From a virus (taxonomy: Duplodnaviria; Heunggongvirae; Uroviricota; Caudoviricetes), in the IMG/VR virus record IMGVR_UViG_2671180637_000025, positions 1-40,163 of that record: a stretch of 40,163 nucleotides of DNA, one strand, 5' to 3'. Position 1 is the first letter of the stretch. Each line of letters begins with the position of its first letter. A model generated the notes under the pieces. The model was given only the letters and a program-made list of their open reading frames with translations, had not been told where the DNA came from and did not search any database. Shown here in pieces: positions 33,124 to 40,163 of the stretch. Both the position numbers and the translations under genes were made by a program.

Positions 33124-33810
33124 TCAGAAGAACCATGCCTTGTCGTTGATGTACTCCGCGTGCGTCTGGATATCACGCAGGCATTTGCTCACACCGACGA
33201 TGTAGCAGAACATGGTGGTCAGTTCCGCCGCCGCGCCCGATACATCATGCCCGTCGTCCTGCAACTGGTTTAGCAGATTCATCAGCAGTGAGTTCTCCGT
33301 CAGGCCGAGAACACCAGACGGCGAGTGAATCAGGCTACGGTAGCCTGGCTTCAGTGGGGCACTGTAGGTTTTGTTCTCTATCTTCATTGCCTGCATCACT
33401 GCTGATGCTGTGGCGTTGGCTACCTGGTCGGCAACCATCTTTATGCGTTCTTCCTGCGGGAGCGAGTTTTTAATGTAACTTCCGGTGCGGCGGATCTGAG
33501 GAAGAACCTCACCTGTAACCCATTTACGAAAGCGGTAGGGGATAGTGCCTGGTGTCACTGCGTCGCGGCAGCGGAGGATCAGTGTGTAGAGGCCTGACTC
33601 GTTGATAATATTGGTTTCGCCTTGACGGCCTAAGTTAAATTTAGCCCTTTCATCATCATCAAGAGATTTTATTGACATAGTGGGGTTTGTCAGTTGAAGA
33701 GCTTTAATAACGTCTTTGGCAACAAACCAAGGATTTCCATCAATAACAATGGCTCGAATGGTTGCTTCTGATTCAAAATGAAAAACAGATGGGGTTACGT
33801 TAGCAGTCAT
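33124..33810 (-). CDS. Antirepressor, Bro-N-type N-terminal domain plus C-terminal domain shared with the neighbouring small ORF
   Basis: Start at ATG 33810 behind AGGTGA (track extension to 33963 runs through a terminator); Bro-N signature VFHFESEATIRAIVIDGNPWFVAKDV. Confidence 0.7.
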   Translation of the reverse strand: MTANVTPSVFHFESEATIRAIVIDGNPWFVAKDVIKALQLTNPTMSIKSLDDDERAKFNLGRQGETNIINESGLYTLILRCRDAVTPGTIPYRFRKWVTGEVLPQIRRTGSYIKNSLPQEERIKMVADQVANATASAVMQAMKIENKTYSAPLKPGYRSLIHSPSGVLGLTENSLLMNLLNQLQDDGHDVSGAAAELTTMFCYIVGVSKCLRDIQTHAEYINDKAWFF

Positions 33811-33962
33811 AGTGATCACCTTTGTAGTTAGGTTAATCACCACTACCGACGCCAATCGGTTGGTGGTGAACTGTGCAGGGTTGGCGTAACCGGCTACAAA
33901 GGACCCGGCGCACCTTTCGGTGCCCCCACACAGCCCACCATAGAATAGGTGCGCTTTACACA

Positions 33963-33982
33963 TAAAAAAACCGCTTATGCGG
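33963..33982 (-). terminator. Intrinsic terminator between the two antirepressor genes
   Basis: Stem CCGC / GCGG with loop ATAA followed by eight T on the minus strand. Confidence 0.55.
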
Positions 33983-34575: not shown

Positions 34576-36978
34576 ATGACAGTCTCAACCGAAATCAGCC
34601 ACAATGAGTATCTCGGGAATGGAGTCACGACATCATTCCCATATACTTTCAGAATTTTTAAAGACACAGATCTTGATGTAAGCACAATAACCGCTGACGG
34701 TCTTGTTTCTCCAATGATCCTGGGGACAGATTACATGGTTACAGGTGCTGGCTTATCTTCCGGTGGAAGCGTTATTACGTCATCTCCTGTTTTGCCAGGC
34801 ATTACAATATCAATCACTCGTAACCTTCCAGCAGTGCAGGAAACTGATTTAAGAAATCAGGGGAAATTTTTTGCAGAGGTCCATGAGGATGCATTCGACT
34901 ACCTGACCATGCTTATTCAGCATGCGATGTTCAACATCGGTGCTCTTCAGAGAAATACGCTTAGGGTTCCTGAAAACAGTGTAAACCTGGTGCCAAAGGT
35001 ATCAAGTCGCCGGAATATGATTTTTGGCTGGGATGACAGTGGGCAGCCTATAGCCATTCTCCCTCCGAGTGCTTCTGCCAGTGAAGTGCTGATTCTTCTT
35101 GCTCAGCCTGACGGATGGAAAAAGATCGGTGGCGTGGATAAATTTGAGCCGATACCAATCACCGTTATGCCATCTTACAATCAATCAAACGTTGTTGCAG
35201 CATGGGTGGAGAGTGTAAATCTCTATGGCTATGTTTATTTCCCTTGCCACTCTGCAACAAAGAAAACTTATACAATACCAGGAACGGCCTCACAGGCAGG
35301 AAATCTGCAAAACTCCCGTGTAATCGTTGATAAAAACGTCATTCTTAAATTCGACAGCGATCTTTACTCGCTTTATAAGTCGCTGAAGTTTGAAGGTGAA
35401 TGCACTTTTGAGTTTTCCCATCTTAATTTCACAACAACCGGTGGAGAGGTGGATTACCTGGCTAAGCAGGCTATCCTCAACCGAAACCCTATTCGCATGA
35501 AGCGAGTGGAATGGTCAGATTGTAAAGTTTATTCCATAAATGGTGACACGTTCTTCTATGAAGGTGAAGTCACCATATCCTCAGATAGCGCAGCTATCTT
35601 CCCCTTAACTACTGACCGTACAACAGGCCTGTTCGCACCAATAGATATTGGAGAGCATATTTCTGCACATATTCGTATGGAGTCTCAGGCCGCCTCAGAA
35701 GTTGGGATTGTTCTGCGATGCTCTGGTGGTTGGATGATGTTCTATGGGGCACCAGGTGCTACACAGTGGTCTTATAGACAGAAACCAATTGGTGGTCCAG
35801 TAGCAGAAGGAACTCCATTCCCGCTGCCAGGAGGTTTACTGTCGTACGCCCCGGGCAAAGCAACCGTTGGCGTATCACTGCAAGGTAAAAACTGGGCGCA
35901 GATAACGATGAATGGCGTTGGGATACGTTTGCCCTTTGATACTGCTGATGTAGGGGATGTATACGAAGTTGGGTTTGTTGCACTGACCACGGCATCTGGA
36001 GGTTCTGCGCGTGTAACTGGATTATGCAGCTACACCTCTGATAATGGCGTGCACGGTAAGCCTCCACTTAATATCCTTATCCACGGTGATAGTACAGCTG
36101 AGGATTTCATTTCCGCGTTCAGCTCGTACATTCCGCAATTAATGGATGGAGCGAACGGCCACCGTTCATATAGCATTGTAAACAAGGCGGTTGCCGGACA
36201 GACAATGAGGCAACAGTTAGATCTCCTGAAGGCTCAGGGGCCGGGTGATGCTTACATCGTTATTATGGTTGCCGGAACTAACGAAGGGCAGGCAAACCAA
36301 AACGGCGATTATATGGCGGCACTGATAGATGAGTTTGTCTTATATTGCAATGGCCTTGGTCGTATCCCTGTTTGGGTTGAGCCGTGGATGTGGTATAGCC
36401 AATCATTTATTGGAGGGGCTGGCCAGCCATCTTCTAACTACGACGGTGTCGCAGAGTTGCGAGAAGCTGGTAAACGCCAGATGATGAAATATGGCAATAA
36501 CGTCATTTGTGTAACAACAACTCACCAGCTCCCGGCCCCATATCCAGAGTATTTCAACACGCAATACGACCCACTTCTGCGTGATGACATTCACCAAAGC
36601 CAGTTAGGGTATCGTCTGTATGCGGAAATTATCTGCTCTGCCATTATCGACTGGTGGTCGCGTGTTGATTACACGCCAAGAGCAGCTGTTCAATGGTGGG
36701 CTGGAACAAACGTAACAGTACAGGAACCGTCAAGTTTAACTGCCAATTCAATTAATATTAAACTGGCAGCCACTTCATTTGCGAATGGCAATACTGTTCT
36801 AACGCTTCCGAGGTGGTGCAGACCAAAAGTAACCAAAAATGTCCCTGTACTGTTCACTGCTGATGGCGTTTCATTTGGCATGGCAATGGCCACCATTAAC
36901 GCTTCAACAGGACAAATATCGATTGATGGGTCCACAACTACATCTCCAACGTTCTACATAGATGCGACATGGGCGTGA
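34576..36978 (+). CDS. Tailspike/tail fibre with T7 gp17-like N-terminal anchor and C-terminal SGNH/GDSL esterase domain
   Basis: 800 aa; N-terminus EYLGNGVTTSFPYTFRIF; SGNH blocks ILIHGDSTAE, MVAGTNEG, RDDIHQS. Confidence 0.8.
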   Translation: MTVSTEISHNEYLGNGVTTSFPYTFRIFKDTDLDVSTITADGLVSPMILGTDYMVTGAGLSSGGSVITSSPVLPGITISITRNLPAVQETDLRNQGKFFAEVHEDAFDYLTMLIQHAMFNIGALQRNTLRVPENSVNLVPKVSSRRNMIFGWDDSGQPIAILPPSASASEVLILLAQPDGWKKIGGVDKFEPIPITVMPSYNQSNVVAAWVESVNLYGYVYFPCHSATKKTYTIPGTASQAGNLQNSRVIVDKNVILKFDSDLYSLYKSLKFEGECTFEFSHLNFTTTGGEVDYLAKQAILNRNPIRMKRVEWSDCKVYSINGDTFFYEGEVTISSDSAAIFPLTTDRTTGLFAPIDIGEHISAHIRMESQAASEVGIVLRCSGGWMMFYGAPGATQWSYRQKPIGGPVAEGTPFPLPGGLLSYAPGKATVGVSLQGKNWAQITMNGVGIRLPFDTADVGDVYEVGFVALTTASGGSARVTGLCSYTSDNGVHGKPPLNILIHGDSTAEDFISAFSSYIPQLMDGANGHRSYSIVNKAVAGQTMRQQLDLLKAQGPGDAYIVIMVAGTNEGQANQNGDYMAALIDEFVLYCNGLGRIPVWVEPWMWYSQSFIGGAGQPSSNYDGVAELREAGKRQMMKYGNNVICVTTTHQLPAPYPEYFNTQYDPLLRDDIHQSQLGYRLYAEIICSAIIDWWSRVDYTPRAAVQWWAGTNVTVQEPSSLTANSINIKLAATSFANGNTVLTLPRWCRPKVTKNVPVLFTADGVSFGMAMATINASTGQISIDGSTTTSPTFYIDATWA

Positions 36979-37092
36979 TCGTTAAAAATATGCCATAGAT
37001 ATAATTAATCACAGCCAACCATATATGGTTAAAATGTGTATGATAAACTCTCCAACTAAGGAGGTTATTATGCACAATAGATGGTGGTCACT

Positions 37093-37497
37093 ATGGCAAC
37101 CACGCTGACAACGGAGTCACTTAATCAGGGGCTTAGCCTTGGTGCGCTGGCTTCCGTTGTTGCCGGGGTTCCTCCAGAAGTAGCGTTAGGTGCTCTTGCT
37201 GGCGCGGTAATTTTTGTTACCTCGGCAGTTGAGTACCCAATAAAAAGGCGGCTGCTCCTGGCTATTCTCAGCTTCCTCTGCGGAGTTCTCTTCTACAAAG
37301 CGACAGCATCAATTCTCATCGGTGTTGCCAGCCTTATACCAACGATCACGCAGGATTCTTTTGAGAAGGGCATTGTGTTTTCTGCCGGTGCTTTCGTATC
37401 AGCAATCGTTGCTGTCCGCATTGGTATCTGGCTGTATCACAGCTCTGAAAATCCGCGCGACCTTATCCCGGGGAGAAAAGACGATGGCCAGTCCTGA
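37093..37497 (+). CDS. Holin-like membrane protein (possible dual-start holin/antiholin)
   Basis: About three TM segments; in-frame Met codons at 37081 and 37093 (MVVTM...); first gene of the lysis cassette. Confidence 0.5.
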   Translation: MATTLTTESLNQGLSLGALASVVAGVPPEVALGALAGAVIFVTSAVEYPIKRRLLLAILSFLCGVLFYKATASILIGVASLIPTITQDSFEKGIVFSAGAFVSAIVAVRIGIWLYHSSENPRDLIPGRKDDGQS

Positions 37498-37777
37498 GCT
37501 ACTTCTCATCCTGAACGCCGCAATCTGCGGCGGAATTGCAATCAGAGTCCTGCTGTTCCGTCGTGACGGGGCACGCCATCGCTGGTGGGGCGGGTGGCTG
37601 GCTTACCTTCTTATTGTCTCTGCTGCCAGCGTGCCTATTCGTACTTTTTACGGGCATTACATATGCGCAGATTGGTCAGAAATCATCATCAAAGCCGTGT
37701 TCCTGGCAGCCCTTATCAAGACAAAAGGGAACGTGGTGCAAATTTTCAAGATAACGAGGTCTCAGCATGGACATTAA
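37484..37777 (+). CDS. Second holin-like small membrane protein
   Basis: ATG 37484 behind GGGAG; 97 aa; two hydrophobic segments; overlaps both neighbours. Confidence 0.5.
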
Positions 37778-38396
37778 ACAATTCCAGCGAGCTGCTGGTA
37801 TTAGCGAGGCGCTGGCCGCTCGCTGGTTCTCGCATATAACTTCTGCAATGAAAGAGTTTGGCATCAGCAAAGCAGAAGATCAGGCAATGTTTATTGCTCA
37901 AGTCGGGCATGAGTCTGGTGGCTTCACCAGGTTGCAGGAGAATTTCAACTACAGCGTCACAGGACTGGCTAACTTTGTTCGGGCAGGACGTCTCACTCAG
38001 GGACAGGCCAACGCACTGGGTCGCCGTGCTGGTGAACCACCATTGCCACTCGAGCGCCAGCGCGCGATCGCAAATCTGGTGTACAGCAAACGCATGGGTA
38101 ACAATGCCCCAGGCGATGGATGGAATTACCGTGGGCGCGGACTTATCCAGATTACCGGTTTGAATAACTATCGTGACTGCGGAAACGGCCTGAAAGTGGA
38201 CCTGCTGGAGAATCCTGAACTGCTGGCGCAGGACGAATATGCGGCTCGTAGCGCGGCGTGGTTTTTCTCCAGCAAAGGCTGCATGAAGTATTCCGGAGAT
38301 ATTGTACGTGTAACTCTGATTATCAATGGTGGCAGGAACGGCATCGACGACCGGCGGGCGCGTTACATCACTGCCAGTAAGGTGCTGGCGGTATGA
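37767..38396 (+). CDS. Endolysin, glycoside hydrolase family 19 (chitinase-like) type
   Basis: 209 aa; [12 protein letters not shown] and [12 protein letters not shown] motifs; between holins and spanins. Confidence 0.8.
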
Positions 38397-38875
38397 TCTG
38401 GGCATTCGTAAAAGCATACTGGAAACAGTTGGTTATCATGGCGATCCTTGCTGTTCTGGTCATGTCAGGAGTTGTAGCCTGGAATGCACACGGCAGTCGT
38501 CAGTACGACGCCGGGTATGCGCAGGCGAAAGAAGACCGCAAAGCCGAAGAAGAAAAGGCTCGTCAGCACTACGAACAGGAGAAAGCGACCAATGAACGTG
38601 AAGCGCAGCAGAGGATCGATCAGGCGCGCAGCGATGCTCTTGATGCTGCCGCTCGCGCTGGCAGGTTGCAGCAACAGCTCGTTGCCATCCGTGAGCAGCT
38701 CAGGCAGTATAACGCCATTGTCGGCGCTGGGGCGTCAGCCGCAGATACCGGAGTTTTGCTTGCCGACGTGTTCAGCAAATCTCTCGAGAGAAATAGACAA
38801 CTGGCAGAGTATGCTGACCGGGCAGCCGAAGCCGGAAGAGTCTGCGAAAAACAGTACGACACCCTGACCAGATAG
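38393..38875 (+). CDS. Inner-membrane spanin, Rz-like
   Basis: 160 aa; N-terminal TM helix then coiled-coil-like charged region; ATGA overlap with endolysin. Confidence 0.65.
38592..38867 (+). CDS. Outer-membrane lipoprotein spanin, Rz1-like, embedded in the +1 frame of the Rz-like gene
   Basis: Signal [26 protein letters not shown] with lipobox LAGC; Pro/Ser-rich mature part; wholly inside 38393..38875. Confidence 0.5.
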   Translation: MNVKRSRGSIRRAAMLLMLPLALAGCSNSSLPSVSSSGSITPLSALGRQPQIPEFCLPTCSANLSREIDNWQSMLTGQPKPEESAKNSTTP

Positions 38876-39022
38876 CATGGCATTTTTCATGGTACTGATT
38901 TTTGTTGACGGTATATAAAACGGTATGGTGAAAATCAAGTTGCAGAAAGTTGTTATCAGTCAATTGGTTATGTATGTCGTAAATAATTGAGTGGGAATGA
39001 TTTGACCCTGCACTATGAATGA

Positions 39023-39054
39023 ACAAAACCCTCTGTTACTACAGAGGGTTTTTT
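39023..39054. terminator. Bidirectional intrinsic terminator after the lysis cassette
   Basis: A-run, stem CCCTCTGT / ACAGAGGG with loop TACT, then TTTTTT. Confidence 0.7.
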
Positions 39055-39092: not shown

Positions 39093-39632
39093 TTAATTAA
39101 ACCAGCTGTCCGATTTGTTCTCTTCTGCTTTGCCCACGCTTTTCATCAGATCGCGACCGCCTTCAGTCATATTTCTGTTGGCGTCAGCTTCAGATTGCAC
39201 CACATCGGTTTGCGCAGCTTTGTGCTTCAGTTCCTGATCGATAAATTCGTTTTCTCGCTTAACGCGGGCTTCTTCTTTCGCCAGCGCCAGTTTTTGTTTC
39301 TGAATCTCTAAGCTGCGTAGCTCATCTTCATAACTTTGATCGCGTTTTTTGTCCGCAGAGGCTTCGGCGTCCAGTTTATCCTGACGAGCTTTCTTATTTG
39401 CCGCTGCCGTTGCCGCTCTTTTGTTAGCGGCGGCCTGGGCATTTGCGCGACGTTGCTTCTCTTGCTGGATTTCCCTGTTGCGCTCCGCGACCCATTCGTC
39501 ATGCTGCCTTTGCTCTTCATTTTTACCTTGCTGTTCCGCTTCTGCGACAGCAGAGAGTTGATCCTGCAATGATGAGGCGATAGCCGGATAGCTTAAGGAG
39601 GCTAAGATGGCGCAAAGAAAAACTTTCTTCAT
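39093..39632 (-). CDS. Secreted/periplasmic coiled-coil protein (179 aa); host flank or phage cargo
   Basis: Signal peptide MKKVFLCAILASLSYPAIA without lipobox; Lys/Glu/Gln/Ala-rich. Confidence 0.5.
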   Translation of the reverse strand: MKKVFLCAILASLSYPAIASSLQDQLSAVAEAEQQGKNEEQRQHDEWVAERNREIQQEKQRRANAQAAANKRAATAAANKKARQDKLDAEASADKKRDQSYEDELRSLEIQKQKLALAKEEARVKRENEFIDQELKHKAAQTDVVQSEADANRNMTEGGRDLMKSVGKAEENKSDSWFN

Positions 39633-39647
39633 GACTCCTCCTGATTA

Positions 39648-40163
39648 TTAGCTCTTTTCAGGACATTTGGTATTTGGCTGAATACGCGTTTCGTTATACG
39701 TCGTGGTAATAACAACGGCTAAACCTGTCGTAAACTGGCACTCTTTACCCACCTGGGTAGAGGTATACACTTTGGTGCCTTCCTTATAGGTTAAAGAAAC
39801 ACCTTCCACTAAGGTTTTATCATTCACCATAGAACCCGCTGCCGCGCCTACAGCTCCGCCGCCAACTGCACCTGCCGTCGTTCCGGAATTGCTGCCAGAC
39901 CCGACGTTGTGGCCGATAACACCGCCAGCGACTGCGCCAATAAGCGCGCCGAAGGCTTGTGCGTTCCGTTTATTTTGGGAGTTGTCTACGGCAACTTTTG
40001 CGGGAAGAATGGAAATAATATTAACGGTTTTAGTTTCTTGTTTGGTATTCAGTTGATCGGTTTGATAAACATCGGCAGCATGATCGTCAGCATTTGACTG
40101 GCATCCTGCCAGAGTGAATGACGCTAACATTGCCACAGGCAGAAGACATTTTTTAAATTTCAT
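39648..40163 (-). CDS. Lipoprotein with glycine-zipper-like segment (171 aa); host flank or phage cargo
   Basis: ATG at the last base of the window; lipobox LAGC; Gly/Ala-rich GALIGAVAGGVIGHNVG...GAVGGGAVGAAAG. Confidence 0.5.
   Translation of the reverse strand: MKFKKCLLPVAMLASFTLAGCQSNADDHAADVYQTDQLNTKQETKTVNIISILPAKVAVDNSQNKRNAQAFGALIGAVAGGVIGHNVGSGSNSGTTAGAVGGGAVGAAAGSMVNDKTLVEGVSLTYKEGTKVYTSTQVGKECQFTTGLAVVITTTYNETRIQPNTKCPEKS

Follow-up and report, generated by a model that had tools for sequence, protein, structure and literature searches.

Organization of the lysis locus

The sequence under study, hereafter the window, is a stretch of 40,163 nt of viral DNA (Caudoviricetes; IMG/VR record IMGVR_UViG_2671180637_000025). 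Positions 1-39100 corresponded to approximately one complete phiV10/epsilon15-like (Uetakevirus) prophage of E. coli, from the integrase to the putative spanin gene pair that ends at 38875. The genes and features that frame the element and its lysis cassette were the following:

1-1251: tyrosine integrase; the window begins at its start codon, and attL lies outside the view
37081-37497, plus strand: holin-like membrane protein of 138 aa, Phage_holin_8 (Pfam E = 1e-11; PHROG 198, holin), first gene of the cassette
37484-37777, plus strand: holin of 97 aa, Phage_holin_3_7 family (Pfam E = 2.8e-25; PHROG 217, holin)
37767-38396, plus strand: endolysin of the glycoside hydrolase family 19 (GH19) type, directly upstream of the spanin (Pfam Glyco_hydro_19, E = 5.9e-10; PHROG 181, E = 5.7e-92)
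38393-38875, plus strand: putative i-spanin (Rz-like) gene, an ORF of 160 codons with DUF2514, a PHROG 312 match and an orthologue in phiV10
38592-38867, plus strand: putative o-spanin (Rz1-like) gene for a 91-aa prolipoprotein, in the +1 frame and wholly inside the i-spanin gene; PHROG 11621
39025-39052, plus strand: hairpin of terminator type with a T run behind it, located after the cassette; the phiV10 and epsilon15 records list its equivalent as a terminator
39093-39632, minus strand: E. coli yfgI, the chromosomal gene adjoining the prophage
39648-40163, minus strand: E. coli yfgH, the chromosomal gene after yfgI

The cassette was therefore ordered as Phage_holin_8, Phage_holin_3_7, GH19 endolysin and Rz/Rz1, and each gene overlapped the next. 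The tandem holin-family genes share 14 nt; by sequence, either could be the functional holin, and the other may be an antiholin or accessory protein. For the first of them, the RefSeq name in phiV10 and epsilon15 is merely 'membrane protein'. The gene directly preceding the cassette encodes an 800-aa tailspike (34576-36978), which gave no Pfam match, and upstream of it lies a gene with a Bro-N domain (33124-33963, minus strand). In phiV10, epsilon15, SPN9TCW, and BUCT554, an O-antigen-modification gene (oac, O-antigen ligase-like or gtrA) is found between the tailspike and the lysis cassette, and this gene is absent here.

On the 3' side of Rz, similarity to phiV10 and epsilon15 extended to about position 39002 and then broke. 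A nearly unchanged copy of the hairpin AAAACCCTCTGTTACTACAGAGGGTTTT (39025-39052) is present in the attP regions of the phages and carries a terminator annotation there. The hairpin may be the attachment core or part of one, and integration would then restore a terminator for both yfgI and the lysis operon.

The outer gene encodes an i-spanin-like protein

The interval 38393-38875 was exactly one plus-strand ORF of 160 aa in our reading of the window, and its ATG overlaps the endolysin stop codon (ATGA). We refer to its product as Rz. Two features were mapped within it:

38420-38482, plus strand: N-terminal transmembrane segment, about residues 10-30, from hydropathy, with K7 and K11 before it
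38843-38845, plus strand: Cys151, the sole cysteine, nine residues from the C-terminus, read from the sequence

The protein matched Pfam DUF2514 with 143.8 bits (E = 6.5e-42; cut-off, 26) over profile positions 1-160 of 161, and PHROG 312, 'Rz-like spanin' of the lysis category, with an E value of 1.2e-58, while an NCBIfam search returned sub-threshold noise only. The hydropathy peak covered residues 12-30, the best Kyte-Doolittle window of 19 residues starting at residue 12 with a mean of 2.37, and the sequence beyond the membrane segment was rich in Ala, Gln, Glu, and Arg. When the single sequence was modeled with AlphaFold2, the mean pLDDT was 85.6, and the model consisted of a helix at residues 2-111, within which the transmembrane segment falls, a break at 112-115 and a second helix at 116-159; the four-residue break sits in a Gly/Ala stretch. 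Hydropathy and model together gave a protein with a single N-terminal transmembrane helix and an all-helical remainder. From the positive-inside rule, applied to K7 and K11, we infer an N-in, C-out topology.

The inner gene encodes a putative outer-membrane lipoprotein

The +1 frame of Rz was open from 38484 to a stop codon at 38865-38867, and the +2 frame contained many stops. The ATG at 38592 lies 199 nt from the Rz start, i.e., in the +1 frame, and the ORF it opens ends 8 nt ahead of the Rz stop codon, so that the embedded span runs from 0.41 L to 0.98 L of Rz. An earlier note on this DNA had proposed an Rz-like gene at 38393-38875, with a lipoprotein carrying an LAGC lipobox encoded wholly within it in the +1 frame; the outer ORF was found exactly as described there, the nested frame and its lipobox were confirmed, and the coordinates of the inner gene were set at 38592-38867. 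The product of the inner ORF, hereafter Rz1, matched PHROG 11621, also 'Rz-like spanin' of the lysis category, with an E value of 2.9e-39 over 87 of 88 profile positions, and had no meaningful match in Pfam or NCBIfam. The same note had pointed to spanin classification, and on this count both proteins fell in spanin families (PHROG 312/DUF2514 for the outer, PHROG 11621 for the inner). The following elements of the inner gene were located:

38577-38581, plus strand: AGGAG motif resembling a Shine-Dalgarno sequence, 10 nt upstream of the inner ATG, read from the sequence and kept in relatives
38658-38669, plus strand: lipobox L-A-G-C, from the sequence and a PROSITE-style rule
38757-38771, plus strand: C-L-P-T-C (CxxxC) motif with Cys56 and Cys60, conserved in relatives

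The RNA around the inner start was less structured than shuffled controls (z = +2.2), which is weakly consistent with an internal initiation site. To judge the lipoprotein signal, we re-implemented the PROSITE prokaryotic-lipoprotein pattern rule, which asks for a Cys at positions 15-35 and for K/R among residues 1-7. With the start at 38592, the protein has a basic n-region (MNVKRSR) and a Cys at position 26 (38667-38669), and it passed the rule; when starts at 38484, 38517 or 38634 were used instead, the rule failed. A signal peptidase II site was thus present by this analysis, as the earlier note had anticipated, and in agreement, the RefSeq note on the phiV10 Rz1 orthologue records a lipid attachment site (PS00013). 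Cys26 is the candidate lipidated first residue of the mature protein and is followed by Ser at +2. Under the established Lol sorting rule, in which the outer-membrane signal has no Asp at +2, this Ser predicts that mature Rz1 is localized at the outer membrane.

Mature Rz1 has 66 aa, including 14 Ser and 8 Pro. The mature region had been described as rich in both residues, and this held for Ser, while the Pro content was only moderate and lower than that of lambda Rz1. AlphaFold2 on the single sequence returned a pLDDT of 52, with a low-confidence linker and a weak helix at residues 54-76; the model hints at a largely unstructured protein with one short helix.

Conservation and selection on the embedded frame

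We compared 92 loci, which contained 67 distinct Rz sequences, 62 of them close. The set included 80 viral contigs with an Rz identity of 89-96% and, among named elements, phiV10, epsilon15, SPN9TCW, BUCT554, TL-2011b, and a Klebsiella prophage; the distant loci, with an Rz identity of about 47-51%, were Tbat1_6, Tyrion, GP-1, Vi II-E1, swi2, and Burkholderia phage Bcep176.

The inner ORF could be an unexpressed by-product of the Ala/Gln/Glu/Arg-rich composition of Rz, the DUF2514 protein being the only real one. When Rz was recoded with synonymous codons, an ATG-initiated +1 ORF of at least 91 codons did appear at a rate of 22-26%, so the length of the ORF alone is not evidence, and the inner gene is left uncalled by PGAP and in several GenBank records. 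However, a lipoprotein-like signal followed by a mature part of at least 40 aa arose in only 0.17-0.2% of the recodings, and gene callers are known to be biased against embedded genes, which the missing annotation reflects (PMC6139136). The frame itself argues further against a by-product: a +1-frame lipoprotein with a lipobox was found in 67 of 67 distinct relatives, out to Bcep176 and including those whose Rz is only about 47-50% identical, and the conservation of the frame that the earlier note had expected was therefore borne out. The CxxxC pair was likewise kept in all 67, as part of a shared block, PxLSPLAxQPxxPxxCxPxCS, and a Cys within the last 20 residues of Rz was also present in 67/67. 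Among the 62 close relatives, the ATG at 38592 was invariant and the upstream GGAG was present in every one, with the longer AGGAG in 61.

Selection was then assessed by counting the classes of single-base variants that occur among the relatives, each scored in the two frames. Before the overlap, 61 of 121 possible Rz-synonymous variants were observed (50%). Within the overlap, only 43 of 176 were seen when the change altered Rz1 (24%; Fisher p = 7e-6 against the 50% before the overlap) and none of 13 when it would stop Rz1 (0%), whereas variants silent in both proteins were observed in 5 of 8 cases (63%). Changes nonsynonymous in Rz behaved similarly, since those silent in Rz1 were observed at 22 of 166 sites (13%) and those altering Rz1 at 24 of 402 (6%; p = 0.006). 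These counts show the signature of purifying selection acting on both frames. Nucleotide diversity at the wobble positions of Rz was also halved in the overlap (0.075 vs. 0.145), but diversity per codon position was discarded as evidence, as all three positions drop together and the measure is confounded by the stronger protein-level conservation of the Rz C-terminus; the two-frame counts were used instead for this reason. We regard the comparative evidence from these related sequences as decisive for an embedded gene, and it appears very unlikely that the inner ORF is an unexpressed by-product.

A second question was whether the inner gene is real and starts elsewhere, either at ATG 38634 or 38643, which would leave a very short signal peptide, or at 38484 or 38517, which would add a long basic N-terminal extension. 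The frame is open from 38484, 61-62 of the 62 close relatives likewise keep the ATGs at 38517, 38634, and 38643, and a long form of 139 aa is annotated in the Tyrion record. On the other side, 38592 is the only start that satisfies the positional rule for lipoproteins and the only one with the conserved GGAG at a suitable distance. Moreover, a +1-frame stop codon lies between the equivalent of 38484 and 38592 in 25 of the 62 close relatives, the ATG at 38484 is lost in 17 of them, and the curated RefSeq records of phiV10 and epsilon15 use the 91-aa form. We consider another start improbable, and mature Rz1 would be identical whichever start applies.

The comparison with Bcep176 by BLASTP detected the same DNA block in both frames: residues 90-159 of Rz aligned with gp56 (E = 9e-13) and residues 47-76 of Rz1, which include the CxxxC motif, with gp57 (E = 3e-9). 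This is the pattern one would predict for a region that codes for the parts through which the two proteins interact.

Among relatives, Rz diverges much faster over its N-terminal third (38393-38590), which holds the transmembrane domain and the beginning of helix 1, than over the part that overlaps Rz1 (38592-38867). For SPN9TCW, the amino acid identity of Rz was 62% before the overlap and 94% in it, and TL-2011b showed a mosaic-like pattern, being 98% identical at the nucleotide level in the overlap and 85% before it. This faster divergence of the non-overlapped part suggests recombination or relaxed constraint.

Interpretation and proposed mechanism

The two-component embedded spanin was reportedly set out as a functional class by Summer et al. 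2007. We consider it highly probable that the gene pair at 38393-38875 is a two-component spanin in this embedded arrangement and the last element of the prophage lysis cassette, and the spanin interpretation offered in the earlier note is thus supported. A unimolecular spanin was ruled out, as Rz lacks a lipobox upon sequence inspection and Rz1 lacks a C-terminal transmembrane domain, its best hydropathy window being the signal peptide.

From these sequences, we infer that the pair functions in lysis. By established lipoprotein biogenesis, the Rz1 prolipoprotein would be exported by Sec, lipidated at Cys26 and cut by signal peptidase II, and the mature protein would be carried by Lol to the outer membrane. 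On the model of lambda Rz/Rz1, the two proteins would bind each other through their C-terminal parts, bridging the periplasm and passing through the peptidoglycan mesh; after destruction of the wall by holin and endolysin, the spanin complexes would be freed to collapse, and the collapsing complexes would fuse the inner and outer membranes, with release of the progeny.

The inner lipoprotein might instead be real and act outside lysis, for example in lysogenic conversion or exclusion in the manner of Bor/Cor-like proteins, with Rz working alone or with another partner. Small moron lipoproteins do occur in prophages, and our literature search found no experimental report on the Bcep176/DUF2514 spanin family. 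However, the inner gene always occupies one and the same part of a single i-spanin family, in podoviruses as in siphoviruses and whichever endolysin and holin accompany it, and the most conserved block of Rz1 falls together with the block conserved at the C-terminus of Rz. In addition, the promoter scan found no promoter of its own for the inner gene, and the cassette contains no other lipoprotein gene. A non-lysis role is, in our judgment, very hard to credit next to that of an o-spanin.

At least one periplasmic cysteine is present in 507 of 528 two-component spanin systems (PMC6139136). Here, Rz carries C151 and mature Rz1 carries C56 and C60, with this layout conserved in the 67 distinct relatives, and by analogy these residues probably form periplasmic disulfides that stabilize the complex. 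One may speculate that so strict a cysteine layout reflects a covalent architecture other than that of lambda, e.g., a heterotypic disulfide between i-spanin and o-spanin, a conjecture that we regard as doubtful; the systems examined to date form homotypic dimers, and no heterotypic link has been observed among them (PMC6139136).

Annotation of the pair and its significance

The same Rz/Rz1 pair is already known from phiV10 and epsilon15, both close relatives. In the 12 records listed of 515 matching E. coli RefSeq records (514 genomes), PGAP gave only a 'DUF2514 domain-containing protein' at the locus, and the best match among those listed was 99.4% identical at the nucleotide level, i.e., not identical to the window. 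The inner coding sequence is missing from the GP-1, ST11-OXA245phi3.2, BUCT554, and TL-2011b records, and the ORF and its lipobox are intact in all of them. In the Enterobacter phage Tyrion, the o-spanin annotated with 139 aa (656-1075 of our locus L084) begins a long way ahead of the signal peptide, and its start has probably been misplaced. The spanin pair of Salmonella phage Vi II-E1 (601-1092 and 779-1045 of locus L086) is labeled 'phage tail protein'. E. coli NADC1036 has two copies of an Rz that is 99.4% identical to that of the window, one in the chromosome (NZ_CP076264.1) and one in a separate replicon of 38,709 bp (NZ_CP076267.1); the second copy is most simply explained as an excised circular prophage assembled as its own record.

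With the pair recognized, the prophage has a complete lysis cassette, and DUF2514 is thereby shown to be an i-spanin family. The importance of the finding lies mainly in correct annotation, given that the inner gene is routinely missed, and it raises no new question about lysis.

Comparison with known spanins

The closest described counterparts were PhiV10p30/p30a of phiV10 and p06/p07 of epsilon15, both Uetakevirus, in which a membrane protein gene, a holin and a GH19 endolysin are followed, as here, by an Rz gene enclosing Rz1. The dimensions also coincide, with an outer gene of 483 nt, an inner gene of 276 nt in the +1 frame and the same lipobox. Identity to the window was 85% at the nucleotide level over the cassette and 86-89% at the amino acid level for Rz; the phiV10 orthologue, annotated as 'Rz-like spanin', accounted for the 89%, and phiV10 Rz1 was 93% identical. 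Only allelic differences separate the pairs, residues 1-66 of Rz being 79-80% identical and the overlap part 91-96%; unlike the elements compared, the one studied here is an integrated prophage next to yfgI. The same pair is also annotated in SPN9TCW, Tbat1_6, swi2, and Bcep176 (Rz/Rz1).

Kongari et al. 2018 defined a 15-member family of embedded i-spanins ('Bcep176') and a matching o-spanin family, with members including epsilon15, phiV10, TL-2011b, SPN1S, SPN9TCW, SPC32H/N, and E1 (PMC6139136). By sequence comparison and profile matches, Rz is assigned to the Bcep176 i-spanin family (DUF2514, PHROG 312) and Rz1 to the Bcep176 o-spanin family (PHROG 11621). In the same survey, embedded o-spanin genes begin at 0.4-0.5 L and terminate at 0.9-1 L in about 70% of cases (PMC6139136), and the position of Rz1 matches this pattern.

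The resemblance to lambda Rz/Rz1 is one of architecture. In both systems, the i-spanin gene contains the whole of the o-spanin gene, in the +1 frame, and the pair closes the lysis cassette; the i-spanin combines an N-terminal transmembrane domain with two helical segments that a linker connects; the o-spanin is a small lipoprotein of the outer-membrane type with a region of low structure; and both proteins carry periplasmic cysteines. The likeness to lambda drawn in the earlier note therefore stands for the arrangement and does not extend to a sequence relationship, the pair belonging with the Bcep176 family. Lambda Rz showed no significant similarity to Rz (BLASTP E = 0.065, 24% identity), and lambda Rz1 aligned with Rz1 over the signal peptide/lipobox region only (pairwise E = 5e-4). 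No lambda-type Pfam family, which we take to be the Phage_lysis and Rz1 lipoprotein families, reached an E value of 0.1 or lower with either protein, and for Rz only DUF2514 reached the cut-off. The proteins also differ in composition, as the mature o-spanin has 66 aa, 8 Pro and a CxxxC pair here but 40 aa, 10 Pro and one Cys in lambda, and the i-spanin has one cysteine here vs. two in lambda (PMC6139136). These comparisons support a functional analogy with lambda Rz/Rz1 that is not accompanied by significant similarity in sequence.

Beyond lambda, T4 PseT.3/PseT.2, P2 LysB/LysC, and T1 gp11 have the same inferred job, i.e., disruption of the outer membrane at lysis. The T4 and P2 spanins share the two-component logic of the pair described here, and T1 gp11 is unimolecular. 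The systems differ in gene arrangement, the two genes being separated in T4, overlapped in P2 and fully embedded in this prophage.
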